A stretch of DNA of 64,000 bases from a plasmid (GCF_054482595.1 NZ_JBTHVH010000001.1), one strand, 5' to 3'. Shown: positions 17,537-43,414, counted from the first letter of the stretch. A program made the numbers and translations. The notes: generated by a model not told the origin, from the sequence alone.

Positions 17537-18730
17537 GTGACCTGGGACGATCACAAGAAGAATTTTGCTCGCCTGGCGCGAGATGGTGGTTACACCATCG
17601 CACAGTATGCCGCCGAGTTTAATCTTAACCCTAATACTGCACGTCGTTATCTCCGTGCCTTCAAAGAAGACACCAGGACAGCGGACAGCCGCAAGCCAAA
17701 TAAGCCAGTCAGGAAGCCACTAAAAAGCATGATCATTGATCACTCTAATGATCAACATGCAGGTGATCACATTGCGGCTGAAATAGCGGAAAAACAAAGG
17801 GTTAATGCCGTTGTCAGTGCCGCAGTCGAGAATGCGAAGCGCCAAAATAAGCGCATAAATGATCGTTCTGATGATCATGACGTGATCACCCGCGCCCACC
17901 GGACCTTACGTGATCGCCTGGAACGCGACACCCTGGATGATGATGGTGAACGCTTTGAATTCGAAGCTGGCGATTACCTGATAGATAACGTTGAAGCGCG
18001 GAAGGCCGCTCGCGCTATGTTGCGTCGGTCCGGGGCCGATGTTCTGGAAACCACTCTTCTGGAAAAGTCTCTTTCTCATCTCCTTATGCTGGAGAACGCC
18101 AGGGATACGTGTATTCGTCTGGTGCAGGAAATGCGCGATCAGCAAAAAGACGATGATGAAGGGACTCCGCCTGAATATCGTATCGCGAGCATGCTAAACA
18201 GCTGTTCCGCGCAGATAAGCAGCCTGATCAACACCATTTACAGCATCCGGAATAACTATCGAAAAGAAAGCCGGGAGGCGGAAAAGCACGCTTTATCTAT
18301 GGGGCAAGCTGGCATTGTTAAGCTGGCATACGAACGAAAGCGTGAAAATAACTGGTCAGTGCTGGAAGCAGCTGAATTCATCGAGGCGCATGGCGGAAAA
18401 GTGCCGCCCCTGATGCTGGAGCAAATCAAAGCCGATCTGCGTGCTCCTAAGACCAATACCGATGATGAGGAAAGGCAAACAGCCGTCGGTGGCCCTTCTC
18501 TTGAAGATCTGGACAAAGTTGCGCGAGAACGGGCCGCCAACCGCCGCGCCGATGCCGCATTGTGGATTGAGCAGCGTAGGGAAGAAATCGCCGATATCGT
18601 TGATACAGGCGGTTATGGAGATGTTGATACTGAAGGTGCATCAAACGACCCATGGCTGGAACAAGACCTGGACGAAGACGAGGAGGAAGACGAAGAAGTT
18701 ACCCGCAAGCTATACGGGGATGATGATTAA
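17537..18730 (+). CDS. pacA: PacA, terminase small/pac-recognition subunit
   Basis: 397 aa, GTG start; contains the pac hexamer clusters. Confidence 0.85.
17730..17916 (+). other. pac packaging site: two clusters of TGATCA/G hexamers (Dam sites)
   Basis: Hexamers at 17730, 17737, 17749, 17764 and 17860, 17872, 17883, 17911, inside pacA. Confidence 0.7.
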
Positions 18731-20214
18731 TGGCCAGAAGTTGCGTAACGGATCCACGTTGGCGCGAGCTGGTGGCGCTATATCGTTATGACTGGATTGC
18801 TGCCGCTGATGTTTTGTTCGGCAAAACACCTACCTGGCAGCAGGATCTGATTATTGAGTCTGTGCAGGAACAGGGTAGCAAGACATCTGTTTCGTCTGGT
18901 CACGGTACCGGGAAATCAGACATGACTTCTATCATGATCATGTTGTTCATAATCATGTATCCCGGTGCCCGCGCCATTATCGTTGCGAACAAAATTCAGC
19001 AGGTAATGACCGGTATATTCAAGTACATCAAGATAAACTGGGCTACTGCCACCAGCCGTTTTCCATGGCTTGCTGATTATTTTGTTCTGACAGAAACCGC
19101 TTTCTATGAGGTTACTGGTAAAGGTGTATGGACTGTAGTACCGAAGGGCTTTCGTCTGGGAAGTGAAGAAGCTCTCGCCGGTGAACACGCAGATCATCTT
19201 CTGTATATTATCGATGAAGCCTCCGGTGTCAGTGATAGAGCTTTCGGTATCATCACCGGTGCTCTTACCGGACAGGATAACCGCATCTTATTACTGTCAC
19301 AGCCTACACGCCCAAGCGGCTATTTCTACGATACTCATCATAAACTGGCCAAGCGTCCTGGTAACCCTGATGGCGTTTATACGGCGATCACGCTTAACAG
19401 TGAGGAATCACCGCTGGTAACGCCAGCATTTATCAAAATGAAGCTGGCGGAGTACGGCGGGCGCGATAACCCTATGTACATGATTAAGGTACGCGGCCTA
19501 TTCCCTAAATCACAGGATGGCTTCCTTCTTGGACGTGATGAGGTTGAACGTGCAACGCGGCGGAAAGTCAAGATTGCCAAAGGATGGGGCTGGCTTGCAT
19601 GTGTGGACGTTGCTGGTGGTACGGGAAGGGATAAGTCCGTTATCAATATCATGATGGTGTCCGGCCAGAGAAATAAACGCCGTGTAATCAACTATCGAAT
19701 GCTGGAATACACAGACGTTACAGAAACGCAGCTTGCCGCCAAAATTTTCGCAGAATGTAATCCTGAGCGATTCCCAAATATCACCATAGCGATAGACGGC
19801 GATGGGCTGGGTAAAGCAACAGCGGATCTGATGTACGAGTATTATGGTATTACCGTACAGCGTATACGCTGGGGTAAAAAGATGCATAGCCGTGAAGATA
19901 AGAGCCTGTACTTTGATAAACGTGCTTATGCCAACGTTCAAGCCGCAGAGGCCGTAAAATCTGGTCGTATGAGACTGGATAAGGGTAATGAAACTATTGA
20001 GGAAGCGTCGAAAATCCCTGTAGGGATTAACTCCGCAGGTCAATGGAAGGTGATGAGTAAGGAGGATATGAAGAAAAAACTCAACCTGCACTCACCAGAC
20101 CATTGGGATACATATTGTTTCGCTATGCTGGCGGATTATGTTCCCCAGGACGAAGTGCTTAGCGTCGAAGACGAAGCGCAGGTTGATGAAGCTCTGGCAT
20201 GGCTTAATGAATGA
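18730..20214 (+). CDS. pacB: PacB, terminase large subunit
   Basis: 494 aa; Walker-A-like GHGTGKS; ATGA overlap with pacA. Confidence 0.85.
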
Positions 20215-20217
20215 ACA

Positions 20218-20234
20218 TTTGCTCTAATAAATTG
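20218..20234 (+). promoter_or_regulatory. C1 operator (15/17) just after pacB stop, upstream of module A
   Basis: TTTGCTCTAATAAATTG. Confidence 0.55.
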
Positions 20235-20363
20235 TGTTTTTTAACTACCGATGTTACATTGAACCTGACCTCTTGCGCCTTGAGGCATTTTCGGTTTATG
20301 CTTATCAGGCACCTCAGTAAAACGGGTGCCGGGATTGGCCTCCCGCTTAAGTCTAAGGCGATA

Positions 20364-20387
20364 CAGACGCCGCTCGCGTCTTTTTTT
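20364..20387 (+). terminator. hairpin AGACGC-CGCTC-GCGTCT followed by T8
   Basis: Read directly; lies between an upstream target-like copy (GTCTAAGG, 20350-20357) and the c4-like RNA. Confidence 0.4.
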
Positions 20388-20417
20388 TGTATCGGCGTAC
20401 ACGCACACCTCTACAAT

Positions 20418-20497
20418 GGTGGGCTGTATGGGGCTACCTTCGGGTAGGCTGGTTACCTTGGACGCCAGTAAGGCCAACTCCGTACAGTCCACCGCCA
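20418..20497 (+). ncRNA. c4: c4-like structured antisense RNA (module A)
   Basis: 11-bp terminal stem GGTGGGCTGTA/TACAGTCCACC, internal hairpin with TTCG loop, 3' GCCA; single-stranded CCTTGGACG (20456-20464) complementary to CGTCTAAGG (20534-20542) on the downstream SD. Confidence 0.5.
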
Positions 20498-20553
20498 GCA
20501 AGATTGGTCTCTTCTGCGGTGGTTACATACCAACGTCTAAGGAGGCTGCCAAT

Positions 20554-20775
20554 ATGGCTACTATCCCTACCCCAACTCATCCTGAATTTATCTGGCGCTT
20601 TTACTCCTGCCAAAAACGTCACTATCACTTCGTTATTGCACCGACAGAAGATGAGGCACGTTCTCAGCTTCCTGACGCCCCATGTATTTTCTCTGCCCGT
20701 TTTTCCACTGATTCACGCAATTCTCTCAGTTACTGGTGCCTCCCTGTTAACGCTTCTGCTCAGGAGGGACTATGA
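20554..20775 (+). CDS. icd: icd-like small protein (73 aa), coupled to ant
   Basis: ATG with AAGGAGG SD; stop overlaps ant start (ATGA); track ORF 20326..20775 is an extension across the RNA. Confidence 0.55.
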   Translation: MATIPTPTHPEFIWRFYSCQKRHYHFVIAPTEDEARSQLPDAPCIFSARFSTDSRNSLSYWCLPVNASAQEGL

Positions 20776-21890
20776 GAACATCGTTAGTTACCCGTGAAGA
20801 GATGATCGAGGCAATTGAACAGCACACTGCCTGTATCAGTACCAGGGATATACCAGGCGTTATTGCCAACTACTTCATGATCACCAAACAACTTTACCGG
20901 AGAAAGGACAAGAACGCGGTTCACCGTATCCTGTTGTCTGATATCCGCGAATACCTGCTCGAACAGGGTCATCTGAATTACGCAACCGTCGCAGCCGAAT
21001 CACGCAAGGAGGCACACAGAATGAAAGCAACTAACGTTAAATCAGAAAAAATTCATGCACCTTCAGTTCAGGAATCGGAGCTGGTGGTTGTTCAGAATCA
21101 GTCTGATGAAATTCCCGTTCTGGAATGGCAGGGAGTGCGTGTAGTGACAACCGAGACTCTTGCTAGAGGGTATGGGACAGAAACAATCCGTATTCGCCAA
21201 AATCATCATGAGAACAAAGTACGCTTTGTTGAAGGGAAGCACTTTTTCAAAGTTGAAGGAGAATCATTGCGCGAGTTGAAGCACAGAGTAGCTTTAAACT
21301 ACTCTGTAAAAATTGCTCGCAATGTTCGCTCACTCACCCTCTGGACAGAACGCGGCGCAGCCCGCCACGCTAAAATGCTCGAAACCGATCAGGCATGGGC
21401 ATTCTTTGAAAAACTGGAAGACAGCTACTTCCGACAAAAAGAACAGCAACCGATCGCAATCCCCCAAACATTACCAGAAGCCCTACGCCTGGCTGCCGAA
21501 CTGGCTGAACAAAAGCAGCTTCTGGAACAGAAAGCCCACCAGCTAAATCAGCAGCTGGTGGCCGCCGCTCCTAAGGTCGATTTTGCCGACCGGGTATCAG
21601 TAGCTAAAGGGATCCTGATTGGGAATTTTGCAAAGGTTGTTGGACTTAAGCAAAACGCGCTGTTTGTCTGGTTACGGGAGAACGGCATCCTGATAGCGTC
21701 CGGTGGACGTAAAAATGTGCCGTTCCAGCAGTACATCAACGCGGGGTATTTCACGGTGAAAGAAGTGGTGCTGGATGATGAAGATGGCTACCAGATACGG
21801 TTGACGCCTCAATTAACGGGTAAAGGCCAGCAGTGGTTGACGCGTAAACTGCTCGATGCTGGCTTGTTAAAACCGGTGGCGGCTGAATAA
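20772..21890 (+). CDS. ant1: antirepressor Ant1 (372 aa) with in-frame internal start for Ant2 at Met84; C-terminal KilAC/ANT domain
   Basis: Size matches remembered 42/32 kDa Ant1/Ant2; AntA-like middle domain; conserved C-terminal block shared with 25550..26602. Confidence 0.7.
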   Translation: MRTSLVTREEMIEAIEQHTACISTRDIPGVIANYFMITKQLYRRKDKNAVHRILLSDIREYLLEQGHLNYATVAAESRKEAHRMKATNVKSEKIHAPSVQESELVVVQNQSDEIPVLEWQGVRVVTTETLARGYGTETIRIRQNHHENKVRFVEGKHFFKVEGESLRELKHRVALNYSVKIARNVRSLTLWTERGAARHAKMLETDQAWAFFEKLEDSYFRQKEQQPIAIPQTLPEALRLAAELAEQKQLLEQKAHQLNQQLVAAAPKVDFADRVSVAKGILIGNFAKVVGLKQNALFVWLRENGILIASGGRKNVPFQQYINAGYFTVKEVVLDDEDGYQIRLTPQLTGKGQQWLTRKLLDAGLLKPVAAE

Positions 21891-21897
21891 TGGAAGA

Positions 21898-21919
21898 ATG
21901 CCCGGTTGATGCCGGGCAT
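21898..21919 (+). terminator. hairpin ATGCCCGG-loop-CCGGGCAT after ant
   Basis: Read directly. Confidence 0.45.
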
Positions 21920-21922
21920 AAT

Positions 21923-22774
21923 TTATTGCGCGCTTTCGGGGTTGTCGTTTACTGGCTGCCCCTTCTTGGTTTTACGGCTGCGCGTAACTGATGCGGCTGA
22001 CTTAACCTTTTTCTCTTCGCGAGTGATGGCAATTTGTTTTTTTACATTTTCAATATCTGCCAGGCGATATATTTTTGCTTGCGGCCAGCGGTCGCAGATG
22101 ATCGGTTCTATGGAGTCATAAAGGCTAAATTTTGCTTTTTCGAATTCACCGTTGATGATAATTCCATCACGGAGAGTTTCATCGCAGATAAACACGCCAC
22201 ACAGTGGCACATGGTAACTAACTGATTTACCATCATTGTAGTTAGGGCTACTGGAAATGTAGTGGACGCGCAGCATTGTTTCGCTAAAGCCGTGTACGCG
22301 CATACGGAATTTTTCATCCTCCGGGTACTGCCTCATTAGCTCTTTTGTTGCTTCCAGGTTCTCTATGTATTTCGCACTGTGCTCATTGATCCCCGCGCTT
22401 TTTTGGATGCGAATGTCCTTATCAATCAGATGAATAATGCGGCCAGCGGTCATGTTGACGCTGTTCACAGCTTCTGTCTGATAAGTTGTAACCTTGCGCA
22501 CACCGCGAAGGATGTTAGGCACTGGATATAAAATAGTCTTTGGGATATTGAGGTCTGGGTACTGTTCCAGTTCCCGCGCCATTAAAGTCCATTTATCAAT
22601 TTCAGCCTGAATGCTGTCTGTTTCTTTGAACGGTAGAACGACAACCGGGCGTACAGGACGACCGTCGCTGGCGGCATCAACGTGTTGGGCGCGTGCAACA
22701 GCTTTTTTTAGAAAGAGATCCCTGAAGCTGACGAACTCCTGGTACAGTTGTTCGCCGTAGACATAATTTATCAT
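21923..22774 (-). CDS. c1: C1 repressor of lysis
   Basis: 283 aa; N-terminus MINYVYGEQLYQEFVSFRDLFLKKAVARAQ matches remembered P1 C1. Confidence 0.95.
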   Translation of the reverse strand: MINYVYGEQLYQEFVSFRDLFLKKAVARAQHVDAASDGRPVRPVVVLPFKETDSIQAEIDKWTLMARELEQYPDLNIPKTILYPVPNILRGVRKVTTYQTEAVNSVNMTAGRIIHLIDKDIRIQKSAGINEHSAKYIENLEATKELMRQYPEDEKFRMRVHGFSETMLRVHYISSSPNYNDGKSVSYHVPLCGVFICDETLRDGIIINGEFEKAKFSLYDSIEPIICDRWPQAKIYRLADIENVKKQIAITREEKKVKSAASVTRSRKTKKGQPVNDNPESAQ

Positions 22775-22868
22775 TGATCCTCCTCCAGAATTGACATGGT
22801 CAATAACGCCCGGCTGAGAAAACCGGTCATTACTGACCTATATTATAGAGGGATCAAACAAAAATAAT

Positions 22869-22885
22869 AGATTTATTAGTGCATT
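22869..22885 (-). promoter_or_regulatory. C1 operator-like site (14/17) between c1 and coi
   Basis: Reverse complement AATGCACTAATAAATCT. Confidence 0.5.
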
Positions 22886-23094
22886 TATTGTGAGTCTAAC
22901 TGGTTAGTTGTCATGAGATATTCGATTGTGTCAGTGAGGTCATCCAGGTCGTCTTGGGTGATGCGGTACTCCTGATTGGATATCTTTGAGTAGTGTTCAG
23001 CAATGGCGCGGGCAGCGTCGGTTTCGGCAGGGTCTACAGATAAAGCGTTAGAGCAATGTCTAACGTCGTCGATGGTTGGTTGAATGAAAGCCAT
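22885..23094 (-). CDS. coi: Coi, C1 inactivator
   Basis: 69 aa, directly upstream of c1 on the same strand. Confidence 0.85.
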   Translation of the reverse strand: MAFIQPTIDDVRHCSNALSVDPAETDAARAIAEHYSKISNQEYRITQDDLDDLTDTIEYLMTTNQLDSQ

Positions 23095-23332
23095 AATTAT
23101 GCCTCACTGTATTGACAACACAGAGCCCGAAGCTCTGACCTACTGTTTCACCCATGATCCATGCTGGGGTAATCTAACAACATTGCGCTGTGTGTAAGAT
23201 GAGCAATGCATAGCTGTAATGCCGTTGTATAAGGTTTCCCTGTTTGCTCATTTCCTTCTGAGCCGCTCTACAACGCTGAAGACACATTAAATAGTGAATC
23301 CAAAGTCGTATTACGTAACGGCGGCAAAACTA

Positions 23333-23349
23333 TAATTTATTAGAGCAAT
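23333..23349 (-). promoter_or_regulatory. C1 operator (16/17), Op99-type region upstream of coi
   Basis: Reverse complement ATTGCTCTAATAAATTA. Confidence 0.65.
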
Positions 23350-23415
23350 TGTCAAACAACTATGAAAAACAATCCAGTTTTTAGCTGGTGGAGTGGGATT
23401 TTTCTCTCAAAATTT

Positions 23416-23432
23416 ATTGCTCTAATAATTCT
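23416..23432 (+). promoter_or_regulatory. C1 operator (15/17)
   Basis: ATTGCTCTAATAATTCT. Confidence 0.6.
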
Positions 23433-23476
23433 TGATTTTTATGCGCAGCTGGACGTAAACTCCTCTTCGGATCTAA

Positions 23477-23510
23477 TAACTTCGTATAGCATACATTATA
23501 CGAAGTTATA
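23477..23510 (+). other. loxP: loxP recombination site
   Basis: Exact ATAACTTCGTATAGCATACATTATACGAAGTTAT. Confidence 0.97.
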
Positions 23511-23698
23511 TTAAGGGTTATTGAATATGATCAATTTACCTGTAAATCCATACAGTTCAATACTGTAGCAGGTCAAATAGTGACCACTTGATCATTTGAT
23601 CAAGGTTGCGCTACGTAAAATCTGTGAAAAATTGGCGGTGTTAGTCCTACAGATTTCGCGTAGCGCACTTAGCACCACCAATCAATCAGAGGTGAAAA

Positions 23699-23920
23699 AT
23701 GGGATATTCAACTGCTAAAGTGTCCACTCATCTTGAGCTTGAGAAAAACCGTGGTTACTGGCGGGCAAAAGGGTTTGATCGTGATAGTTGCCAACTGTCA
23801 TTATCGCGCGGTGAAGAGAAAATAGAACGCACGCGCGGTCGCTGGCGTTTCTATGACGAGAACCATAAACAGGTAAAGGCAGAGCCGATCCTGTACACTT
23901 TACTTAAAACCATTATCTGA
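23699..23920 (+). CDS. small ORF (73 aa) between loxP and cre
   Basis: ATG with GAGGTG SD; identity unknown. Confidence 0.35.
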   Translation: MGYSTAKVSTHLELEKNRGYWRAKGFDRDSCQLSLSRGEEKIERTRGRWRFYDENHKQVKAEPILYTLLKTII

Positions 23921-23927
23921 GTGTTAA

Positions 23928-24959
23928 ATGTCCAATTTACTGACCGTACACCAAAATTTGCCTGCATTACCGGTCGATGCAACGAGTGATGAGGTTCGCA
24001 AGAACCTGATGGACATGTTCAGGGATCGCCAGGCGTTTTCTGAGCATACCTGGAAAATGCTTCTGTCCGTTTGCCGGTCGTGGGCGGCATGGTGCAAGTT
24101 GAATAACCGGAAATGGTTTCCCGCAGAACCTGAAGATGTTCGCGATTATCTTCTATATCTTCAGGCGCGCGGTCTGGCAGTAAAAACTATCCAGCAACAT
24201 TTGGGCCAGCTAAACATGCTTCATCGTCGGTCCGGGCTGCCACGACCAAGTGACAGCAATGCTGTTTCACTGGTTATGCGGCGGATCCGAAAAGAAAACG
24301 TTGATGCCGGTGAACGTGCAAAACAGGCTCTAGCGTTCGAACGCACTGATTTCGACCAGGTTCGTTCACTCATGGAAAATAGCGATCGCTGCCAGGATAT
24401 ACGTAATCTGGCATTTCTGGGGATTGCTTATAACACCCTGTTACGTATAGCCGAAATTGCCAGGATCAGGGTTAAAGATATCTCACGTACTGACGGTGGG
24501 AGAATGTTAATCCATATTGGCAGAACGAAAACGCTGGTTAGCACCGCAGGTGTAGAGAAGGCACTTAGCCTGGGGGTAACTAAACTAGTCGAGCGATGGA
24601 TTTCTGTCTCTGGTGTGGCTGATGATCCGAATAACTACTTGTTTTGCCGTGTCAGAAAAAATGGCGTAGCTGCGCCATCTGCCACCAGCCAGCTATCAAC
24701 TCGCGCCCTGGAAGGGATTTTTGAAGCAACTCATCGATTGATTTACGGCGCTAAGGATGACTCTGGTCAGAGATACCTGGCCTGGTCTGGACACAGTGCC
24801 CGTGTCGGAGCCGCGCGAGATATGGCCCGCGCCGGAGTTTCAATACCGGAGATCATGCAAGCTGGTGGCTGGACCAACGTAAATATTGTCATGAACTATA
24901 TCCGTAACCTGGATAGTGAAACAGGGGCAATGGTGCGCCTGCTGGAAGATGGCGATTAG
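23928..24959 (+). CDS. cre: Cre site-specific tyrosine recombinase
   Basis: 343 aa; matches the well-known Cre sequence (MSNLLTVHQNLPALPVDATSDEVRKNLMDMF...MVRLLEDGD). Confidence 0.97.
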   Translation: MSNLLTVHQNLPALPVDATSDEVRKNLMDMFRDRQAFSEHTWKMLLSVCRSWAAWCKLNNRKWFPAEPEDVRDYLLYLQARGLAVKTIQQHLGQLNMLHRRSGLPRPSDSNAVSLVMRRIRKENVDAGERAKQALAFERTDFDQVRSLMENSDRCQDIRNLAFLGIAYNTLLRIAEIARIRVKDISRTDGGRMLIHIGRTKTLVSTAGVEKALSLGVTKLVERWISVSGVADDPNNYLFCRVRKNGVAAPSATSQLSTRALEGIFEATHRLIYGAKDDSGQRYLAWSGHSARVGAARDMARAGVSIPEIMQAGGWTNVNIVMNYIRNLDSETGAMVRLLEDGD

Positions 24960-24976
24960 CCATTAACGCGTAAATG

Positions 24977-24993
24977 ATTGCTCTAATTCTTTG
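24977..24993 (+). promoter_or_regulatory. weak C1 operator-like half site (core ATTGCTCTAAT)
   Basis: 13/17. Confidence 0.3.
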
Positions 24994-25009
24994 ATATTTA
25001 TGGCGACAT

Positions 25010-25321
25010 ATGAGAAAGAATTTCAACATCGACGGAAAATATGTAGTGCTGTCAGTGAGCACTAATATTCAGTCGCCAGCCGTCATTGTCACTGTAAAGC
25101 TGAGCGATAGAATGCCTGATATTGACTCAATATCCGTTGCGTTCCCTGTCAGAAGTATGCGTAGTGCTGAACATTTCGTGATGAATGCCACCGAGGAAGA
25201 AGCACGGCGCGGTTTTGCTAAAGTGATGTCTGAGTTTGGCGAATTTTTGGGGCACGTTGACAAAGCCCTCTCAATCAGTTCAGCAAGATCCAAAGCATTA
25301 ACAGCTTCCATGATGAAATAA
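25010..25321 (+). CDS. hypothetical protein (103 aa) downstream of cre
   Basis: Track ORF ending just before a hairpin; weak SD. Confidence 0.35.
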   Translation: MRKNFNIDGKYVVLSVSTNIQSPAVIVTVKLSDRMPDIDSISVAFPVRSMRSAEHFVMNATEEEARRGFAKVMSEFGEFLGHVDKALSISSARSKALTASMMK

Positions 25322-25326
25322 AAAAA

Positions 25327-25345
25327 GCCTGGCAAGGAGCCAGGC
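25327..25345 (-). terminator. hairpin GCCTGGC-AAGGA-GCCAGGC followed by a U-run on the minus strand; terminator for module B
   Basis: Read directly; A7 precedes it on the plus strand. Confidence 0.45.
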
Positions 25346-25549
25346 TGCACAAAAGAGCGGGTTTGTATTCCGCATCCAATCAATCAAGAAGGAGTATAGC
25401 ACACAGGTACTGACGTGAAAAAATATGATTCGCGATAAACAAAATACCTATCATTGCTCTAATTGAGCCGCAGTTTTTGTCAACTACGAAGACGTGGCCA
25501 TTACCTACTCCTTTGAAATCATTGGCGACCATTAGGCCGCCTTTTTTAA

Positions 25550-26602
25550 TCATTCAGCCGCCACCGGTTTTAACAAGCCAGCATCAAGTAGCTTGCGAGT
25601 CAACCACTGCTGGCCTTTACCCGTTAATTGGGGCGTCAGCCGTATCTGGTAGCCATTTTCATCATCCAGCACCACTTCTTTCACCGTGAAATACCCGGCG
25701 TTGATGTACTGTTGGCGCGGTACGTTTTTGCGCGCACCAAAAGCCATGAGAATGCCGTTCTGGCGCAACCATGAGAAAAGGGCGTTTTGCTTCAGTCCAA
25801 CGACCTTTGCAAAGTTCCCGATCAGGATTCCATTAGCCACTGATACCCGAACGGCAAAATCGACTTTAGGGGCTGCGGCCACCAGCTGCTGATTTAGCTG
25901 GTGGGCTTTCTGTTCCAGAAGTTGCTTTTGTTCAGCCAGCTCGGCAGCCAGGCGCAGAGCTTCGGGGAGTGTTTGGGGGAGCACTGGAGAAGCAGTGTTA
26001 GCCTGCTGCAATTCCTCCAGTTTGTCGATCAGCGAACGGCGGACCGCTTTTGACTCGCGCGCGGCAACTCGCAGGGCTTGTTTGTAGGTCATGGAGATAG
26101 TTTCAGATGTTGTGTTGTTTAATTTTTGCACTACGAAAATTTCGTAGTACTCACCATCCAGTTCATCCTTAACTCTGGCAATAAAATCATTATTGCGAAC
26201 TGGTTTTTCGCTGCATAATTTCCGCGCTTCATTGACCATCTTCAACAATGTTTGGCTGTCTATTGTGTCGCCGCTGTTGGGGATAACATTCACGGCTGGT
26301 GCAGTTGTTCCCAAAGACTTCGTAACTACAGCGTCTGGTTTGCTTGCTTTCATTCTGTGTGCCTCCTTGCGTGTTTCGGCTGCGACGGTTGCGTAATTCA
26401 GATGCCCCTGTTCGAGCAGGTATTCACGGATATCGGTTAGCAGAATGCGGTGAACCGCGTGTTTGTCCTTTCTCCGGTAAAGTTGTTTGGTGATCATGAA
26501 GTAGTTGGCAATAACGCCTGGTATATCCCTGGTACTGATACAGGCAGTGTGCTGTTCAATTGCCTCGATCATCTCTTCACGGGTGACTAATGACGTTCTC
26601 AT
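25550..26602 (-). CDS. antirepressor-like protein, paralog of Ant1 with a different central domain (350 aa)
   Basis: First about 85 aa and last about 150 aa near-identical to 20772..21890; middle unrelated. Confidence 0.65.
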   Translation of the reverse strand: MRTSLVTREEMIEAIEQHTACISTRDIPGVIANYFMITKQLYRRKDKHAVHRILLTDIREYLLEQGHLNYATVAAETRKEAHRMKASKPDAVVTKSLGTTAPAVNVIPNSGDTIDSQTLLKMVNEARKLCSEKPVRNNDFIARVKDELDGEYYEIFVVQKLNNTTSETISMTYKQALRVAARESKAVRRSLIDKLEELQQANTASPVLPQTLPEALRLAAELAEQKQLLEQKAHQLNQQLVAAAPKVDFAVRVSVANGILIGNFAKVVGLKQNALFSWLRQNGILMAFGARKNVPRQQYINAGYFTVKEVVLDDENGYQIRLTPQLTGKGQQWLTRKLLDAGLLKPVAAE

Positions 26603-26820
26603 AGTCCCTCCTGAGCAGAAGCGTTAACAGGGAGGCACCAGTAACTGAGAGAATTGCGCAAATCGGTAGAAAAGCGGGCAGAGAAAATACAGGGAGCATC
26701 CGGAAGCTGAGAACGTGCCTCATCTTCTGTTGGTGCGATAACGAAGTGATAGTGACGTTTCTGGCAGGAGTAAAAGCGCCAGATAAATTCAGGGCGTGCG
26801 CAAGGATTGGCATTAACCAT
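26599..26820 (-). CDS. icd-like small protein (73 aa), paralog of 20554..20775
   Basis: PEFIWRFYSCQKRHYHFVIAPTEDEARSQLPDAPCIFSARFSTD block shared; ATGA overlap with downstream gene. Confidence 0.55.
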   Translation of the reverse strand: MVNANPCARPEFIWRFYSCQKRHYHFVIAPTEDEARSQLPDAPCIFSARFSTDLRNSLSYWCLPVNASAQEGL

Positions 26821-26867
26821 AGTTACGGCCTCATGTACAGGTTTAACAACCTGCTATCCGCTGCTAA

Positions 26868-26947
26868 ACGGGTGGCAGGACGTGACGGGGTTAGCAGACT
26901 GGCGTACATGAAACCAGCAGGCCGAAGCCTCCCCATCACGCCCCACC
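26868..26947 (-). ncRNA. c4-like structured antisense RNA (module B), diverged from module A
   Basis: Aligns to the module A RNA with compensatory stem changes; recognition TCATGTAC complementary to GTACATGA on the icd-B SD (plus 26831-26838). Confidence 0.45.
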
Positions 26948-27121
26948 ATAATTCGGGCGTAACGTGGTTTTACGGACACAAAAATACCGCAATATCGGAT
27001 ATCTGCGGTTGTCCGCATGTACATTCAGGCTGCTAAACCCGGTCGCAGAATTTGCTACGACGGCGGAACTATAAGCCTGAATGACAGGAAGATCAATAGT
27101 CTGGCGTTCAATGGTAGTATT

Positions 27122-27154
27122 TTTGCTCCAATAAATCAAATCTATTAGAGCAAT
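27122..27154. promoter_or_regulatory. pair of C1 operator-like sites in tail-to-tail arrangement (13/17 and 16/17) between module B and the MBL gene
   Basis: TTTGCTCCAATAAATCA and reverse complement ATTGCTCTAATAGATTT. Confidence 0.55.
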
Positions 27155-27296
27155 AAATTATTATCCCAAGCTTTACAGTGCGCTGTAAAATTCAAACCTT
27201 CGGGTCAGTGGCGGAATCGTATTTCACTCACGGAATGAGTATTATTAGTTTTGTCATACATAGCTAGGTAATGAATCACTTGAAGGAACTACGAAC

Positions 27297-28097
27297 ATGT
27301 CCGTGACCATTAGCGTCCTGCTGGAAAACAGACTTAAGCTTGGAGTTAAAAACTCGCTGCGTGCTAAAGCAGGACTTAGTCTGTTGATACAGGATGAAAA
27401 CGATTCAATCCTGTTTGATACTGGGCCTGATGATAGCTTCATGTATAACGCAGGTTTAATGGGGGTCGATTTGACAAAACTGACCGCAGTTGTACTTTCC
27501 CATGGTCACTATGACCACTGCGGAGGTGTTCCGTGGATACCAGACACATGCAGGATAATATGCCATCCTATGGTGTCGGATGAGCGCTATTCGGCAATCA
27601 GGTTTTTAGGCTATACCGCCAGAATAAAAAAATTATCATTACATAATGATTTTTCACGTTTCCGCATGGAATACAGCAACACACCATTGCATATCAGTGA
27701 GCGTTTTATGTGGTCAGGAGAGATCCCTGTTGCCAGGCCACGCGCTTACGGTGTTATCGGGTGTAAGAATACGAAAGAAGATTACGTAAAAGATGAGGGG
27801 GTTTTAATTTATAAATCAGACTATGGGTTGATCATTTTTATCGGTTGTGGTCATTGCGGGGTAATTGATATTGTGCGCCACTGCCAAAATATAACCGGGA
27901 TAAATCATATTCATGCAATTTTTGGTGGTCTTCATCTGCGCTGTGCGTCCCCTCTTATGCTCTGGAAGGTGAGACAGTTCTTACGCCTTCATAAACCAGA
28001 TAAGATAATGGGGTGTCATTGTACTGGCAAATGGGGACGCTTGTGGTTACCGGAATCAACCTCTCCGGCAACAGGTGATGTTTATGTTCTTGGATAG
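27297..28097 (+). CDS. MBL-fold metallo-hydrolase
   Basis: HGHYDHCGG (HxHxDH), GCGHCG, GGLHL motifs in order; AAGGAA SD; AT-rich by eye. Confidence 0.65.
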   Translation: MSVTISVLLENRLKLGVKNSLRAKAGLSLLIQDENDSILFDTGPDDSFMYNAGLMGVDLTKLTAVVLSHGHYDHCGGVPWIPDTCRIICHPMVSDERYSAIRFLGYTARIKKLSLHNDFSRFRMEYSNTPLHISERFMWSGEIPVARPRAYGVIGCKNTKEDYVKDEGVLIYKSDYGLIIFIGCGHCGVIDIVRHCQNITGINHIHAIFGGLHLRCASPLMLWKVRQFLRLHKPDKIMGCHCTGKWGRLWLPESTSPATGDVYVLG

Positions 28098-28104: not shown

Positions 28105-28221
28105 GCTGTTTCTGTTCATGTCGATTGTGTGGTTGGGGGCAAGAAAGAATTCACCTTGCTGAATAAGTCAGAGATGGAGTTGCTGGCTGACGCCTATGAG
28201 ATGGCAAACGTCATGCACTAA
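28105..28221 (+). pseudogene. ref: possible 3' remnant of ref (no start codon; C-terminal peptide GGKKEFTLLNKSEMELLADAYEMANVMH)
   Basis: Open frame from 28009 with no ATG; tail resembles remembered P1 Ref C-terminus; needs alignment. Confidence 0.35.
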
Positions 28222-28228: not shown

Positions 28229-28414
28229 ATTATTTTTAATGATAAATGATTGACAACTGACAAGTGACTTCAGCCAGAATCATCACACGCCCGGTACGGA
28301 TGGATCCCTTTTCAAATATTCCATGGACGGCACAGTCTGAGTACCGGGCGCTACCTTCAGTTGTATGTATTGCTAAGCCGCCGCTGGTGGCTTTTCTTTT
28401 TTGTAGGGGGCGCT

Positions 28415-29056
28415 ATGGATAAGAAAATATGCGTTGTTTCGATGAGCGTCGGCAAACCGGCGTCAATGACTGCTGCATGGATCAATAACGAGCTGATAAT
28501 GGCTGAGCGGACCAGCTACCCTGAACGCCGCCGCGATATGGAACTCCAGCTGCTGCGCGAATTGCGAGAAAAAGAGGAAAAGGGGTTTATCGTGCTGGTG
28601 GAAGAGGAAAACAGCTTTATTACTGGTCGAGTTGGCCAGCGTGTAAGGTTGCGCGATCCCTTCATGAACGGCAGGCCGGTACTAATTGAGGCAATGCAGA
28701 TTTATAAGGAGTTGGAACGCCAGAAAGCAATCAAGTTACCGCGCAAGGAATCCGGCAAATACATCCTCCACCAAAGCATCTTCGATTCCGAACACGATAA
28801 AAAAGGCGATGAATTTTTCAACATCAACTGGAGCGAAATAACGACAGAGCATGTTCTGACGTTACTATGTTGCTTTGCGACGGAATACAACAACGTTGCC
28901 AGCGCCGACTACATCAGGGCAATGGCTGGAGAAGTTGAGGCACGCCAGGAACCATCGTTACTAAGCCCTCTGATTAACATAATTCGCAGAACCCAAACAC
29001 TGGCGCAAAAACAAGTACCACAAGGGGAATTGACGGGTAAAGGTAATTATCTCTGA
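28415..29056 (+). CDS. hypothetical protein (213 aa from MDKK)
   Basis: ATG at 28415 with GGGGG SD; track ORF starts at TTG 28361; position corresponds to P1 mat (unverified). Confidence 0.4.
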   Translation: MDKKICVVSMSVGKPASMTAAWINNELIMAERTSYPERRRDMELQLLRELREKEEKGFIVLVEEENSFITGRVGQRVRLRDPFMNGRPVLIEAMQIYKELERQKAIKLPRKESGKYILHQSIFDSEHDKKGDEFFNINWSEITTEHVLTLLCCFATEYNNVASADYIRAMAGEVEARQEPSLLSPLINIIRRTQTLAQKQVPQGELTGKGNYL

Positions 29057-29095
29057 AAGATGCCCGGCGATAGACCGGGCAAAAGGGCGGAAAGT

Positions 29096-29344
29096 TTAAT
29101 CAGCATTCAGGAGCAATGCGTTATCTATGATGATCTGCTCCCATTCTTCGAATGCCCGATCGCGGACGCCCTGGGGAACACTGTTAGTTTTGAAATCGAC
29201 GACCGTACGCCATTTCCCGTCCGGACGGTACATGCGCAGAGCTTTACTTCCCCCTTCCCTGCGCACCTCAACGTTATGCTTGTCAGCAAACTCTTGTAAT
29301 GCTCGTAACGTCCCATGCTTTACTGTGTAGTATCGCTTTTTCAA
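29096..29344 (-). CDS. lxc: Lxc/Bof-like C1 co-repressor (82 aa)
   Basis: Size and position downstream of ulx-darB as in P1. Confidence 0.45.
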   Translation of the reverse strand: MKKRYYTVKHGTLRALQEFADKHNVEVRREGGSKALRMYRPDGKWRTVVDFKTNSVPQGVRDRAFEEWEQIIIDNALLLNAD

Positions 29345-29781
29345 GTTTTCTCTCCAGCCTGTGCCAAGGCTTCAACTTCCAAATCATAAGACTCAAACTC
29401 ATAGTCCTGGTCGTCAACTTCTTCAGGCACTGGCAGTAAATGCCAGGCTGAGTATATCTGACCATTATCAAAACGCTCCTGGCTGTAGAGCGTAGCGGCT
29501 ATGAGTGTTAGCGCCGGGCGGTCATAACGGTAAATTTTGCGAACGTCACGGTCAACGAGACGACCGAAATTACCATAACCGCGCTCCAGTAATAATTTTT
29601 TAATTTCCGGCCAGTATGGACCATAGCTGCGGTACAGGCGGGGATTTTTCAGTAATCGCCCGCGTAGCCCTGACAGGAAGAAATCAACGTATTCGTCTTC
29701 TGTCTTTCCTAACAACGCCGTACGCAGTACCGCCTCAAGATATGTTTTATTCGGTTTTATTGTATCAGATAGTGTGGCCAT
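29341..29781 (-). CDS. ulx: Ulx (146 aa)
   Basis: Immediately downstream of darB, overlapping stops. Confidence 0.5.
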   Translation of the reverse strand: MATLSDTIKPNKTYLEAVLRTALLGKTEDEYVDFFLSGLRGRLLKNPRLYRSYGPYWPEIKKLLLERGYGNFGRLVDRDVRKIYRYDRPALTLIAATLYSQERFDNGQIYSAWHLLPVPEEVDDQDYEFESYDLEVEALAQAGEKT

Positions 29782-29814
29782 ATTATGCGACGCCCGGCGA
29801 ACCGGGCGCTCCTG

Positions 29815-32800
29815 TTATGCGTATTGTTGGATGACGGCCAGAACGTCCGCCACGTTGTGTTTTGTCTCGATAATCCACCAGTTACCCGGGAAATCGCTGT
29901 TCTTTGCCTTCGCTGGCAGCCAGCGAGCGCCGAATTTCGCCTTGATTGCGTCTTTCGCACGGAAAAGAATGCCTTTCATGCCGGACGCCTCCTGAAGCCC
30001 AAATACCTCGCCAGCGGCGAATTTTGGTGCGTACATCATCTTCAGGTCGGCGGTGGATACGCGATAATTCAGACCAAGAGACTGAGCTATGCTGGTGGCA
30101 TCACCCTGTATTGATGATAACTCTTCTTGTTTCTCGTTTCTGGCGGCAATTTCTTCCTCCGTGATGTTGCCAAGGGCCAGGTTTATCCGATCAGCGTCGG
30201 CCTGTTTCTCTTCATCGGTGCGCCCGGCAAGAACCGTGTTAATTCTCTGCAATATCTCCACATGATTCTTGCGCATGCTGAGCAATTCCGGCGTAACCTC
30301 GTTAAGATCCACCAGCCCAAGGATGGCAAGGTCGGAAAACATTGATACCAGGTTGTAGGTCATGCGATAGCTGAGTTGGCCATAGGCTGATGGCAACTGC
30401 ACCGCATCCATTTTATAGGCATCCATAAATTTAGAGCCGTCGTTTACGACATCCGCAATTGCCGGTGTGATTTTCCCTGTGGTGGCGGCCTCCCTGATTG
30501 CTGTTACCCACGATTGAGTCAGTGCGGCGACTGCATGATTCAGATTGGCTTCCCGTTCTGCTGCGATGCGCGCGCTTGCTGCGTCCATTGCCTGCTTGAT
30601 CTCGGCTTTATTGCTGTAAATGCCAATGGTGCCAAACTGTGCTGTGGTGATCTCATAATCTGACGCCCGGAACTCATGGGTACCGAAAATGGCATTGGTG
30701 ACCTCAAGTTCAGAATCCCCGTTACGAGTAGCCCCCTGGCTTGTTTTCTCCGGCATTCTGGCGATCGCATCCGCTATTTTCTCCTGAATTGCTTCAGGGG
30801 ATAGCGTATCTCCATATGACGCGATTACATCGCCATAATTGGAGCCAAACAGTTCAGTCAGGAATACTTCTGCCAAACGGACCTGGCGGTTATTCCCTTC
30901 AGACATCATACCAAGCACCCATTTTGCAATTGACGACTTCAGCGCGCCGTCACGGCGATCCGGGTAAACCGCATGCTTCAGTGGGTCCGTATAGGTACCA
31001 ACAAAATCAATGCTATAGCCTGACTCTGTAGTCTGAACGCCGTATGAGTCAGTGATTTTGATCATGCCGCGCTGCTGGAAACGGTAGAAATCGTCACAGG
31101 AAATGATGTCGTTAATCCCGGCGATGGAGACGCCACCACTGATTTTCTGCATAACAGCATCTTCATCGGGAGTTACATCCACCTGTTTATCCAGCGTCTT
31201 CACATCCCAGTTACCCGATTTGGTGCCTCTTAAGGTAAAGATGATCTCCACGTCTGCGCGCTGGCTGTCGAAGTCCAGCGACTTAATGCGAACGATATCA
31301 CCGGCACAATCGTAGTATTGGCCTACACGCCATGAGCGATCGCCGATAACAAGGAACTCATTCGCATGGTTAACCAGATCAGGATCAACATCCAGAATGC
31401 CTTTATTTATTGCATCCTCCACCAGCGGGCGCAGGCGTTTGATATCCGTCGCGGCCTTCTGAGTACGGTTCAATAATTTCTCATAGCGGGAGATGGCCTG
31501 AGAGATATTAGCCTTGCGCTGAATGGCGCTTTTCAACGACGCGCGATACTGTGCTAACAACATACGGTCTGTGTGATGGACACTCCCCCAGCGGGCCTTC
31601 CAGTCTGCGTTATCCGCTGCCTTGGCCATTGCCGCCTGTTTGAATTTAGCTACCTCGGCGGTGGTCTTTTCAAGTTCCGCTTTGCTTCGCTCTAATTCAG
31701 CGGTAAGTACCTCCACATCCTCGCCAGCTGCGTGCTGCGCCTTGATGTAGTTCTGAAGGTCGATAGTAGCCTGTTCTTTCTGGCGAGCGCGTTTCGCAGC
31801 TTTCGCCTTATCCATTTGAACCTGCATCATTGCCAGACGTTCGCCGTCATCCTTCGCGGTATACATCTGCATTTCGATCATGTCATTGGCGTCGGCGTTC
31901 TCCATTTCTGACTTATCTGAACGGAGGATATCGGAGATCCAGCCTGCTTTACGCTTCAGCGTCTTCAGTCGGTATTCATCGAAAGACCCCTTGCCGCAGT
32001 AGTAGTGAACGCGAACGCTTGCACGGTTGGAACCAACTCGGGCACCGCGACCGTTACGCTGTGCGATACTGGCTGGTGTCCACGGCAACGTCAGGTGGTG
32101 GATATCCGTCGTTCCTCGATGCAGGTTGATACCCACCTCTGCCTTTTTGTTGCAGATGATGATCGGAGTCCGGCCCTCCTGGAAGTCGGCTGCAATCTTT
32201 TCCAGACCGCCCAACGACATTTCATTTTGCTGCGCGATATAGGCGTCATACAGAGCCATTTGCTCGTTGTATTTCGCTATCTGTGCATCTGTTGGTTCAT
32301 CCGGTAGCTCTTTCGGCGGTTTAACCGCTTTCAGTTTCTTACCGGTTTTACCTGCCTCGGCAACCGTCTGAGCATTCAGGATCCCCACCTTTGAAGGTTC
32401 AAGGTTTAGAGCATTGCAGATAATGCGCTTGAGCTTCTGGTGCTGCGTTTTTTCATCGGTGAAGATGATTTGCTTACCTTCCGGGAAAAACTCCTTCAGC
32501 GTGGCGATCAGCTTCGCGTATTTCGGCGTAACGGGGTGAGTTACGGTCTGTTCGTCAATGCCAAACCTGGCCAGGCGCTTATTCACTTCCTGCTCGAACG
32601 CTTCCGGAACCTGCAACTGAATAAACTCGCCCTTATCTATCAGGGAGTATTGCGATTGCTGCGTGATTGAATCATCACTGTCGTCGTCTTCGCTGGTGGC
32701 TTGTTTAGGCAAACTGTCCGCCAGCTGCTGCACCGCATCGGCGTACTCCGGCAGGAAACGATAGGTGATCCGGCGATAGTACAGGTCCATGTCAGTACAT

Positions 32801-35800
32801 ACGCGGTCCATATCCCTGATTATTGAGAAGATCGGACGGGCTTTCTCGTGCTCAATCACGCCATCTTCATTGACCGAGGTCGTTACGCCATTGTTGGCTT
32901 TGGCCGCCGCTTCCGCCTGCTGACGCAATTCTTCATACGCCGCCAGTTGTTCTTCAGTAAGTGGTGCATCCTGCTGGTGTTCGTCCAGCTCCGGGATCTC
33001 CACGGTATCCTTAACGTCTTCCGCCGTTTTAAGCGTTACCCAGCGATGGAATATACCGCGCAGCGCATCAAGGTTTTCAAAGCCCACCAGCGCCATTTTT
33101 TCTTCAACTTCACCGCTAATTTTCTGTACCGTTTCCAGCCTGGTCTTGCCGAAGAATTTAACGAAGTCATCAGGACCGTAGATCCCCATGTTCTGCCAGT
33201 ATTCCTTCGGCAGAACATGAGAAAGCATGTTGTATGCATCGATCGGGGTGTTAACGACTGGCGTTGCAGTCAGGAGAACCGGCCCGCGCCCGCCATTCTT
33301 TTTCATCAGGTACGCGTTTTTAATTGCCATATCTCGCGCCGATTGCGCCACCGCGCTGGTGGGCAGATAGGCCAGTTGTGACGCTTCGCGACCATTTTTA
33401 TAGCTATTGCGGTAGTTGTGACCTTCGTCAGCGATCACACTATCGAAGCCCATATCCTCAAAGTACGGATACTTCTCTGCTTTTTCGGTGCCGGTATCTG
33501 AATACTCCGACAATACCCGGCGACGCGCAGCCTCTTTGCGGTGGGAGTCGGAGTCCATTGCGCTGGCTACGCGCCCGGCGGCAACGAAGTCATAAAGCAT
33601 ATCCTGTGCATGCTCATCTACGGTGTCATCACGTAGCGGAATGCGGGCGTATTGTTCTTTGGTAAACACGACTGCACGGTAATTTGAGTGCGGGATCGCG
33701 TTCATCCGCGCCGTGATAGTGGCTTCATCTGCCAGCTTAAGAGCATCGCGCATAACGGGAGTGCCATCTGCACCAACGACAGGTTTACCGTTCTCATCGA
33801 GCACCGGCACCAGGCGAATCTGATCGCCATCCATCAGCACATCAAGACCGACGAACAGGTAGTTACTGAATGCCTCTTCACTCAGAAACTCTTTTGCTTC
33901 GTAATACCAGTTTTCCAGCACTGATTTAGGCACTACATACGCAGTACGGGTGGAACGACCGTTCTCATAGTTGAACGCCTCAAGCGCCAGCGCGGTCGTG
34001 GTTTTACCCAGCCCGGTACCGAAGCCCAGGATGCCGCGCCCATCTTCGGACAGTCGGCGCACCTCGCTATTCTGGTAATCAAATGGCTGTCGCTTACCGC
34101 TTAATCCCTTCAACCCAAGCGGATCGCCAGAGTGTTCATACGGGATATTGCTATTGAACACATCGTTGTATTTGGCAACCAGCTCATCGTAGCGATCGTG
34201 CGTCTTGATCCACGTATTGAACTGGTCCTCAAGCAGTGCCATCTGCTCGCGGTAGCCGTTCGCCGTCGCGCTATCTTTGCCACCGATACGCGCACCATTG
34301 AGATACTTTTCCAGCTGTGCCGGGAACCCGGTCGCGTTTTCACCTGATTTACGGTCCCACTCGTAGCGGATCTCGCCTGTTTCTTTATCCTTGCGCTGGA
34401 CGACACCGTATCGGTGCCCGACGAACAGACCATCACCACCGTGATAGGTGTCAGAAACCATTTCGTCGCCTTCCAGCTGCACTGACTGCACATAGCGCAG
34501 ATCCGGATAGCCGTTTTCCTGCAAAAATTCCAGAATCACGGAACGGTCGAACCAACGGCTATTGAGCTTAAACCGGATATTCTCTGCTGGCGTCTTGATG
34601 CGCTTCTCTTCGATCGCTGCCAGCTGATTAAGGACGTTGTTCTTTACTGGACCGTCGGGGAGCGTGGCGAGGAATTCCTGTTTTGGAGCCACTATCTCGT
34701 TAATGTCGCCGCTGGTGGCGCGGGCGAACGGAACAATCCCGCCATACGGTGAAACCGCAATGCCAGGGGTGCTGGCCAATAAATTAAGCAACTCGTCATC
34801 ACTGGCTGGCAGTTCGCCGGTAAACGCAAGGCGGAAATCATCGAGCTGGATTGGATCGCGGGTAAGATCGCTATAGAGATAACGCAGGGTGTCCTGATAG
34901 CTGGTGGAGTCATAACTGGCGCTGGAATCATGCGTAACCAGCTTTCCTGTCAGCTCGTCAGAAATAGTGCCATCCAGCTTAATTGCACCACGGAAAGCAA
35001 ACCAGGCGCGCGCACCGCTCCCCGATAATTTCGCTATCGGACCGCGACCGGGGTTACCAAAACGGTCAATCTCTGCCTGCAAACGGGATACCAGAGAAAG
35101 GCGCTGCTGTTCGATTTGTTCAGCACTATGCCCGGCGGCCTTCATGTCCTGATATTCAATTAACATCCGGCCAATCATCGCTCCGCGATACAAGCGTTCA
35201 CGGTATTTTTCAGGCTGGCTGTTAATCCAGTCCACCAGCTGCACCATATCGTCGCTGATTGATGTGGTGTACTTATCGCGGACATTTGCCATCTGGGTAA
35301 ATGTCATACCGAGACGGCCTTCTGTTGTAGTCAGGTTACGCTGAAGAGCCTCCCAGCTATCCGCACCATAACTGGCAACCTCAATCTTCAGCTCCTTCCC
35401 GGCATCAGCTTCAATCCAGCGACCACCAGCATATTTTTGCCATACGCCATTAATCAGGCGCATTTCCCCTTCATCAACAACATCTGCGGTCGGTGACGGT
35501 TCAGCCATATCGAGCAAAGACCAGTCGATACGACTTTCGAAACGATGAATCAGCTTCGCTTTAAGAGCCTGGTTATCAATCTGCCCGTCGGCACGAACCT
35601 CAATACGCCCCTGGAATCCCTTCTCCTGAGTGCCATGAACAAACCGGCGGCCGTCCTTTTCAAACCACTTGCCAGAAATAAACGTTGGCCAAAGCACATT
35701 TGCCGATTCAAGAGTGTCTTCATCCACCAGGGGGATTTTCTCAGCCATCTCCGCCGGATGTTTGCGCATCAGCACCACGTCAACGACCGTACTGGTCCCG

Positions 35801-41883: not shown

Positions 41884-42080
41884 TAAAAACCCCGTCAGTT
41901 GGCGGGGAACTCCACGTCAAATGGCCAATTGTTATGTCAGCTAGCAGTTAAAGCGCCTAGTCATCATCTTTTAAAGAAGTCTTTTTAACTTACCTAAATT
42001 AGTGACACCTCCCGTTTTGCTTGCTATTGTACGCATTCATGAATCTATTCATTAATCTATTCACAATAGTAATTAAAACT

Positions 42081-43385: not shown

Positions 43386-43390
43386 ACAAC

Positions 43391-43414
43391 AAATCCCGCC
43401 GATTGGCGGGATTT
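43391..43414. terminator. perfect hairpin AAATCCCGCC-GATT-GGCGGGATTT, bidirectional
   Basis: Between convergent hipA-like and hxr. Confidence 0.55.

Follow-up and report, generated by a model that had tools for sequence, protein, structure and literature searches.

The sequence described here is a stretch of 64,000 nucleotides (nt), hereafter the window, of the plasmid record NZ_JBTHVH010000001.1 (assembly GCF_054482595.1), the backbone of which is that of a P1-like phage-plasmid. Two icd-ant units, one at 20554-21890 on the plus strand (left) and the other at 25550-26820 on the minus strand (right), lie in inverted orientation around the immC/lox-cre block. Each unit, judged by its sequence, is a complete immI-type operon that possesses every feature by which such an operon is recognized except the map position: in both, a C4 RNA gene lies upstream of icd, the C4 loops and their boxes are complementary, icd is coupled to ant with ant2 nested within ant1, and a C1 operator is present. 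We consider it likely that the two units are stacked, orthogonal antisense-controlled antirepressor modules, which would widen both superinfection immunity and anti-immunity. The evidence that carries this reading is the anatomy of the operons, the complementarity of each C4 RNA to its own target, and the covariation of the boxes among related plasmids.

Anatomy of the two operons

On the left side, a C1 operator (TTTGCTCTAATAAATTG; two mismatches to the consensus ATTGCTCTAATAAATTT) is located at 20218-20234 on the plus strand and is invariant in 11 left leaders. It is followed, on the same strand, by a leader of the IsrK type at 20309-20386, which matches the Rfam model RF01394 (isrK) with a score of 60 bits (gathering score, 50). 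When read from the sequence, this leader carries box a1 (UUGGCC) in a hairpin loop and box b1 (GUCUAAGG), and a terminator scan placed an intrinsic terminator with a T8 run at 20365-20381 (plus strand). The C4 antisense RNA gene at 20412-20499 (plus strand) gave a full-length match to RF01695 with 75.9 bits, the gathering score of that model being 45, and its loops bear b' (CCUUGGAC) and a' (GGCCAA). Its target region at 20504-20553 (plus strand) contains a2 (UUGGUC, 20504-20509) and b2 (GUCUAAGG, 20535-20542), the latter overlapping the Shine-Dalgarno sequence AAGGAGG of icd. The icd gene (20554-20775, plus strand) encodes 73 amino acids (aa) and matches PHROG 1426 at 1e-45; its stop codon overlaps the start of ant within ATGA at 20772-20775. 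The ant1 gene (20772-21890, plus strand) encodes 372 aa, matches PHROG 63 ('anti-repressor Ant') at 1e-131, and contains the nested Ant2 start at 21021-21023 (M84).

The right module, all of which is on the minus strand, has the same order of parts with a leader of a different type. Its control region (27068-27189) contains a promoter-like site at 27189-27160 (TTTACA-18-GATAAT), a C1 operator at 27138-27154 with one mismatch to the consensus, and a second promoter-like site at 27096-27068 (TTGATC-17-TATAGT). By analogy with P1 immI, we take the first and second of these sites to be in the positions of P51a and P51b, respectively. The leader at 27022-27074 is of the P1 type (RF03163, c4-a1b1; 55.5 bits against a gathering score of 46.7) and carries a1 (UUAGCAG) and b1 (GUACAUG). 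The C4 gene at 26868-26953 again matched RF01695 over its full length (71.7 bits; b' CAUGUAC, a' CUGCUAA), and the target region at 26832-26867 contains a2 (UUAGCAG, 26861-26867) and b2 (GUACAUG, 26832-26838), which in this case abuts the icd Shine-Dalgarno sequence GAGG. The icd product is again 73 aa (26599-26820; PHROG 1426 at 5e-46), with the ATGA overlap at 26599-26602, and ant1 (25550-26602) encodes 350 aa, with a PHROG 63 match at 3e-112 and the nested Ant2 start at 26351-26353 (M84). An Rfam scan of the whole window detected exactly two C4 RNAs, those of the left and right modules.

The left Ant consists of an N-terminal extension shared with the right Ant, a central ORF6N domain (Pfam ORF6N, residues 116-202, 4.6e-19), and a C-terminal KilAC/ANT domain (Pfam ANT, residues 260-361, 3.7e-30). 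The right Ant has a P1-type center followed by the ANT domain (residues 238-339, 9.6e-28) and aligns with P1 Ant from end to end. In both modules the internal sequence AAGGAGGCACACAGAATG is conserved and aligns with the ribosome binding site (RBS) and ant2 start annotated in P1 (X15639). By homology (PHROG 63, Pfam ANT), the Ant proteins are predicted to inactivate C1, and the C4 RNAs to repress ant.

The first-pass annotation of this DNA, made from the sequence by eye, had placed C1 operators at the 5' flanks of both modules, and the sites at 20218-20234 (plus strand) and 27138-27154 (minus strand) bear this out. Twelve C1-operator-like sites were found in the window by consensus match, where 0.29 would be expected by chance. 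Three lie in the bracketed block (22869-85, 23333-49 and 23416-32), and others, with one to three mismatches, were found at 1412, 5036, 5085, 7177, 16912, 36512 and 40362, as is expected for a P1-type C1 regulon.

Two observations concern the annotation and the relatives of parts of these modules. The segment 20211-20528, which covers the left leader and C4 gene and corresponds to 20012-20329 of NZ_CP123256.1, is called there by RefSeq/PGAP as a pseudogene of an 'ash family protein', and in other plasmids a small ash coding sequence is annotated over the same stretch; in both cases an RNA leader has probably been miscalled as a protein-coding gene. Part of the variable center of the right ant (26003-26266) is ~90% identical at the nt level to antirepressor genes of many Stx2a-converting lambdoid phages (48 records), a likeness that suggests that P1-like and lambdoid phages have exchanged Ant domains.

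Specificity of the C4 RNAs and covariation of the boxes

The loops of the left C4 RNA are complementary to b1/b2 (GUCUAAGG) through b' and to a1 (UUGGCC) and a2 (UUGGUC) through a', and those of the right C4 RNA are complementary to b1/b2 (GUACAUG) and a1/a2 (UUAGCAG). When each whole C4 RNA was paired with each whole target by RNAduplex, all combinations gave energies between -27 and -42 kcal/mol, which was uninformative since the C4 stem unfolds in such a calculation, and the energies of the box duplexes were used instead. At the box level, the cognate a and b duplexes together amounted to -21 to -24 kcal/mol (in the left module, -9.2 for a and -14.5 for b), the left-right cross pairs to -5.7 and -6.6 kcal/mol, and the pairs formed by either module with the P1 boxes to -6 to -11 kcal/mol. 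The left and right modules thus probably differ in specificity to the point of being orthogonal, and the canonical immI of near-identical plasmids would provide a third specificity.

The comparison of the boxes was extended to another 12 plasmids with two modules, which came from E. coli, E. albertii, E. fergusonii, and Shigella. Across 13 P1-type leaders, the sequence between the promoter and icd is highly conserved, and the differences that exist there are mostly located in the a and b boxes, for which two a alleles (UUAGCAG and UUGACAG) and four b alleles (GUACAUG, GAUUGUG, GUUAGUG and ACGAAUG) were found. A change in a box was always compensated three ways, either among a1, a' and a2 or among b1, b' and b2. 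In a covariation test of the a'-a2 and b'-b2 pairs, 154 of 154 cells were paired, with double changes in 7 of the 14 pairs; none of 500 shuffles reached this result, and controls in which the pairs were slid out of register were 22-50% paired. The boxes of the left-site leaders covaried with a' and b' in the same manner across four alleles, that is, four box combinations. Such covariation is the signature, at the level of sequence, of an antisense lock that would be functional and under diversifying selection, which argues that the ectopic modules are maintained by selection and are not decaying passengers.

Repeat arms and orientation of the bracketed segment

A repeat finder located two pairs of inverted arms, and the parts between them were compared by pairwise alignment. 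The 5' arms (20581-21030 and 26344-26793) extend over 450 nt with 94% identity and a longest identical run of 122 nt; the 3' arms (21460-21901 and 25539-25980) extend over 442 nt with 87% identity. The 5' arm spans icd, apart from its first ~26 nt, and the 83 N-terminal codons specific to Ant1, and in both copies its end coincides exactly with the internal RBS and ATG of Ant2 (M84), which are conserved. The variable portion is the N-terminal half of Ant2, and the 3' arm corresponds to the KilAC/ANT domain. The boundaries of the arms, as aligned, therefore track what appear to be functional units. The repeat finder and the open reading frames (ORFs) agree with the first-pass description of two icd-ant units inverted around c1, coi, loxP and cre, to which cra and c8 have to be added, and the alignment likewise upheld the view that the central domains are unrelated. 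The earlier estimate of ~260 bp for the 5' arm fell well short of the 450 nt found.

The first-pass annotation had further suggested that the repeats could support inversion of the immunity/loxP segment by homologous recombination. On this view, arms of ~450 nt would flip c1-coi-loxP-cre between two functional isomers; in a variant of the scheme, a crossover in the 5' arms would also swap the Ant bodies between the leaders. The length and identity of the arms, with the 122-nt identical run, would favor such an exchange, which would leave all genes intact. Moreover, beyond the initial 26 nt of icd, no difference between the left and right 5' arms is fixed, and the mean identities of the 5' arms are nearly the same within and between sites (left-left, 95.4%; right-right, 95.9%; left-right, 94.9%). 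Since the arms form one allele pool without fixed differences, sequence must have passed between the left and right sites over evolutionary time. The identity of left and right arms within a plasmid (94.7%), however, does not exceed that between plasmids (94.9%). These values give no indication that intramolecular conversion is under way, and gene conversion within the plasmid is likewise unsupported by them.

The records also speak against an invertible segment. A query built from an in silico inverted sequence over its full length returned matches of at least 80% coverage that represented the normal arrangement on the opposite strand, the ends of the segment being quasi-palindromic; hence a flank-orientation query, consisting of the pacB 3' end and the reverse complement of cre/c8, was used. 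The inverted relative orientation of pacB and cre/c8 was found in 0 of 704 P1-like plasmid records, and an inverted sequence matched through the unique flanks in 0 of 1067 E. coli records; all two-module plasmids (at least 43) have the orientation of the window, as have the 31 complete genomes with both modules. The ORF annotation of 20200-27300 contained no invertase gene, and the segment ends are diverged gene homologies of 442-450 nt in place of the short crossover sites of a recombinase. Both junctions would stay convergent after inversion, which would therefore have no evident regulatory consequence. A sequence divergence of 6-13% would be strongly anti-recombinogenic in mismatch-repair-proficient cells. 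We thus regard an invertible segment as very improbable and find no support for a switch that is programmed or commonly fixed, although a rare RecA-dependent inversion through the 122-nt identical run may still take place in culture. The inverted-repeat geometry is, in our judgment, most likely a by-product of two modules that are both transcribed toward the immC block, and not a switch.

Inverted repeats likewise surround a block of genes in the C-segment/Cin system of P1 and in shufflons. In the plasmid described here, in contrast, the repeats are long, diverged coding homologies on which no dedicated invertase acts, and one orientation is found in the records.

Distribution of the modules and the canonical immI locus

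The map of P1 that the first-pass annotation had given, with c1 directly after pacB and immI far from immC, agrees with the reference sequence. In NC_005856, c1 (93231-94082) lies on the strand opposite to that of pacB, which ends at 93206, and the two are separated by 24 nt that hold no gene; c8 is followed by Oref/Pref and ref, so that neither insertion is present, and immI adjoins kilA-repL. Both extra modules are missing from P7 as well as from reference P1. In the window, the left module is inserted between pacB and c1, and the right module lies after c8, where it replaces the 5' part of ref.

At a coverage of at least 80%, the 7.1-kb region 20200-27300 was matched by 43 plasmids in PLSDB and by 31 complete genomes of E. 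coli; NZ_CP123256.1, with 99.6% identity, is the best match. Junction queries showed that the 3' end of an ant gene abuts c1 in 384 of 705 P1-like PLSDB records and c8 in 56 of 706; an insertion between pacB and c1 is the majority state in PLSDB. Some records carry the left module by itself, among them the phages vB_EcoM-673R5, JL22 and RCS47, which match it at 93-97%, and records with the right module by itself also exist. This distribution bears on the possibility that one copy is an artefact of assembly, as raised in the first-pass annotation, or a chimeric duplication of a single icd-ant locus. Repeats of ~450 nt can mislead short-read assemblers; the same layout, however, recurs at 92-99.6% identity in complete plasmids of E. 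coli, E. albertii, E. fergusonii and Shigella, dozens of which were assembled independently, and the two copies have leaders of different types, different C4 boxes and different Ant centers, unlike the product of a collapse or duplication. The recurrence in independent assemblies rules out an artefact for practical purposes, the chance of one being close to nil, and the pair stands.

The first-pass annotation had left open whether the pair arose by rearrangement or acquisition. The canonical immI could have been moved or duplicated to a position beside immC, leaving a genome without immI at sim/kilA-repL. In accordance with this, no kilA or repL gene was found within the window, which contains two C4 genes, and pSvP1, in which homologues of icd-ant take the place of the P1 res-mod genes, is reported to have a modified ImmI (PMC6906374). 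In NZ_CP123256.1, however, the canonical c4-icd-ant-kilA-repL locus is kept at 99072-2032, across the start of the record (icd-ant, 517-1778; C4, 1826-1911; kilA across the origin; repL, 99072-99917), ~2.7 kb past the point that corresponds to the window end, and two more two-module plasmids, NZ_CP027590.1 and CP043256.1, hold all three modules. Furthermore, the 5' arms of both ectopic modules, which comprise icd and the Ant1 N-terminal extension, are ~70% identical to the canonical arm, which indicates that the ectopic modules were not recently copied from the canonical one and are instead its old paralogues. Relocation is very unlikely in view of these results, if slightly less so than an invertible segment. 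Thus, of the two origins that had been envisaged, acquisition is the one upheld, as the modules are extra ectopic operons absent from P1 and P7, and relocation finds no support, the canonical locus being kept in the nearest relatives. A third, canonical module is expected in the genome from which the window derives. The three triple-module plasmids have three different box combinations in each.

Neighboring genes and other features of the region

The left module is preceded by pacA (17537-18730, plus strand) and pacB (18730-20214, plus strand), and a hairpin terminator at 21898-21919, detected by the terminator scan, separates the convergent left ant and c1 genes. The bracketed P1 backbone, from c1 to the remnant of the c8-ref intergenic region, extends over 21923-25547 and is 95-97% identical to P1 and P7. 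It contains the ORFs c1 (21923-22774, minus strand), coi (22885-23094, minus strand), cra (23699-23920, plus strand), cre (23928-24959, plus strand) and c8 (25010-25321, plus strand), and an exact 34-mer loxP site at 23476-23509, the sole loxP inside the bracketed segment. The c8-ref remnant (25322-25547) matches P1 nt 1830-2069 and retains Oref and two ref promoters, ref itself being gone; these C1-controlled promoters now face the 3' end of the right ant and would yield antisense transcripts once C1 is inactivated.

Beyond the right module lie an ORF of 266 aa for a metallo-hydrolase of the MBL fold (27297-28097) and, downstream of it, mat (28361-29056); darB follows at 29815-36582 on the minus strand. 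The MBL-fold ORF is present in NZ_CP123256.1 and absent from the other 12 two-module plasmids examined, in which mat or a hypothetical gene directly adjoins the right leader. A further ref remnant is placed at ~28107-28220 by analogy with 27908-28021 of NZ_CP123256.1. That plasmid carries a SIR2-family gene at 28908-30212, between mat and an 82-aa ORF, which is absent from the window (~29056-29096), a 1.2-kb indel; P1 res-mod is absent from both. Two stretches of the window, 41857-43391 and 50953-55289, do not align with the surrogate plasmid NZ_CP123256.1, elsewhere 96-99% identical, and probably hold variable cargo or the tail-fibre/C-segment region.

Discussion

The order and parts of both modules (C1 operator, a1/b1 leader, C4, a2/b2 over the icd RBS, icd/ant1 overlap and nested ant2) are those of P1 and P7 immI, and the right module is 79.8% identical to P1 c4-icd-ant over 1557 nt. 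The differences lie in the position and specificity of the modules. The P1/P7 immI is located between sim and kilA-repL, whereas both modules of the window are ectopic (pacB|c1 and c8|ref) and, in close relatives, additional to the canonical locus; the C4 boxes of both also differ from those of P1.

The left leader recalls the isrK-orf45-anrP operon of the Salmonella prophage Gifsy-1, as it matches the Rfam isrK model inclusive of the terminator, whereas the right leader fits c4-a1b1 instead. In the left module as in Gifsy-1, the leader precedes a structured RNA and an antirepressor with translational coupling, and it is complementary to a stretch further downstream. In the window, the downstream element is a recognizable C4 RNA followed by the 73-aa icd, and the whole is part of a P1-like plasmid under a C1 operator. 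The presence of an isrK match directly upstream of a C4 gene suggests that 'isrK' and 'c4-a1b1' are versions of one leader, and that the 'orf45' region of Gifsy-1 may be a C4-type RNA. In Gifsy-1, the small RNA IsrK, which controls the antirepressor, is reported to activate anrP translation in trans (PMC4825925).

Insertions at the two sites have been described before. Venturini et al. (2019) reported an ant gene between pacB and c1 for RCS47 and also for pTZ20_1P; for pSvP1, they listed homologues of icd-ant1/2 within RD-1, where P1 has res-mod (PMC6906374). The sites and gene content of these insertions are the same as those of the modules described here; that paper treats the insertions separately, in different plasmids, and does not mention their C4 RNAs, their specificities, or the co-occurrence of an inverted pair with the canonical immI. 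In a literature search of incomplete coverage, we found no paper on the C4 RNAs of extra copies, on distinct or multiple C4 specificities, or on the triple arrangement.

The reading that we favor, stacked modules with orthogonal antisense control, can be put as follows. Two self-contained immI-type operons would have been inserted at two intergenic hot spots that flank the immC/lox-cre block. Each would consist of a C1 operator, one or more promoters, a leader with the decoy boxes a1/b1, the C4 RNA, and the a2/b2 boxes over the RBS of icd, and icd would be translationally coupled to the nested ant1/ant2 antirepressor genes. In the prophage state, by analogy with P1 and P7, each C4 RNA would pair with its own a2/b2, block the translation of icd, and thereby keep its own Ant silent. 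The ant gene of an incoming relative would also be silenced if it is under the same C4 specificity, which would result in immunity. An Ant that the resident C4 RNAs do not recognize would be made and would inactivate C1, which would result in anti-immunity. By stacking different locks, a plasmid would exclude more relatives and be able to induce more resident prophages. The IsrK-type leader on the left may add a second layer of control, in the manner of the trans activation of antirepressor translation by Gifsy-1 IsrK (PMC4825925).

The steps of this scheme follow the P1/P7 literature, and the anatomy, complementarity, covariation, distribution and lack of isomers were computed here. The heteroimmunity of P1 and P7 is known to rest on covarying a and b boxes.

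Several points weigh against the proposal of stacked, orthogonal modules. The a box of the right module recurs in the canonical module of the surrogate plasmid, so that b alone tells the two apart, and their cross duplexes of -11 to -12.5 kcal/mol make the orthogonality of this pair less certain. The canonical immI would lie ~2.7 kb past the window end, which maps to ~4755 of NZ_CP123256.1. The three plasmids with three modules are consistent with non-redundancy and fall short of statistical proof. Finally, the function of the modules, including expression, repression and C1 binding, is inferred from homology and covariation.

The modules add to the known immI family, at hot spots that were known as well, and are an ordinary feature, widespread in P1-like plasmids; since they leave the known immI mechanism unchanged, their significance is incremental. 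A mildly novel angle is that C4 specificities orthogonal to one another are stacked and that the a/b box alleles are combinatorial. Reference P1 is not typical of its family in this respect: most sequenced P1-like plasmids hold at least one extra antisense-guarded antirepressor beside c1, and a minority hold two extra modules plus the canonical one. The alleles seen so far comprise at least two a and at least four b alleles of the P1 type and at least four IsrK-type combinations, and we tentatively propose, as a conjecture that may well prove wrong, that the C4/Ant modules of a P1-like plasmid, up to three in number (canonical, pacB|c1 and c8|ref) and non-redundant, form a combinatorial 'immunity barcode' with specificities drawn from a pool of interchangeable a and b box alleles. 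If so, the set of modules would decide which relatives are excluded and which resident prophages are induced, and the common arms would serve as handles for recombination, by which leaders and Ant bodies are reshuffled from site to site and from plasmid to plasmid. The three-way covariation of the C4 boxes also provides a ready-made natural set of orthogonal pairs of antisense RNA and target. P1-like phage-plasmids serve as carriers of resistance genes, among them mcr-1 and those for extended-spectrum β-lactamases (ESBLs). Should the modules act in the way that their sequence suggests, they would set the rules of superinfection immunity, the cross-induction of prophages, and the co-existence of P1-like phage-plasmids with one another.

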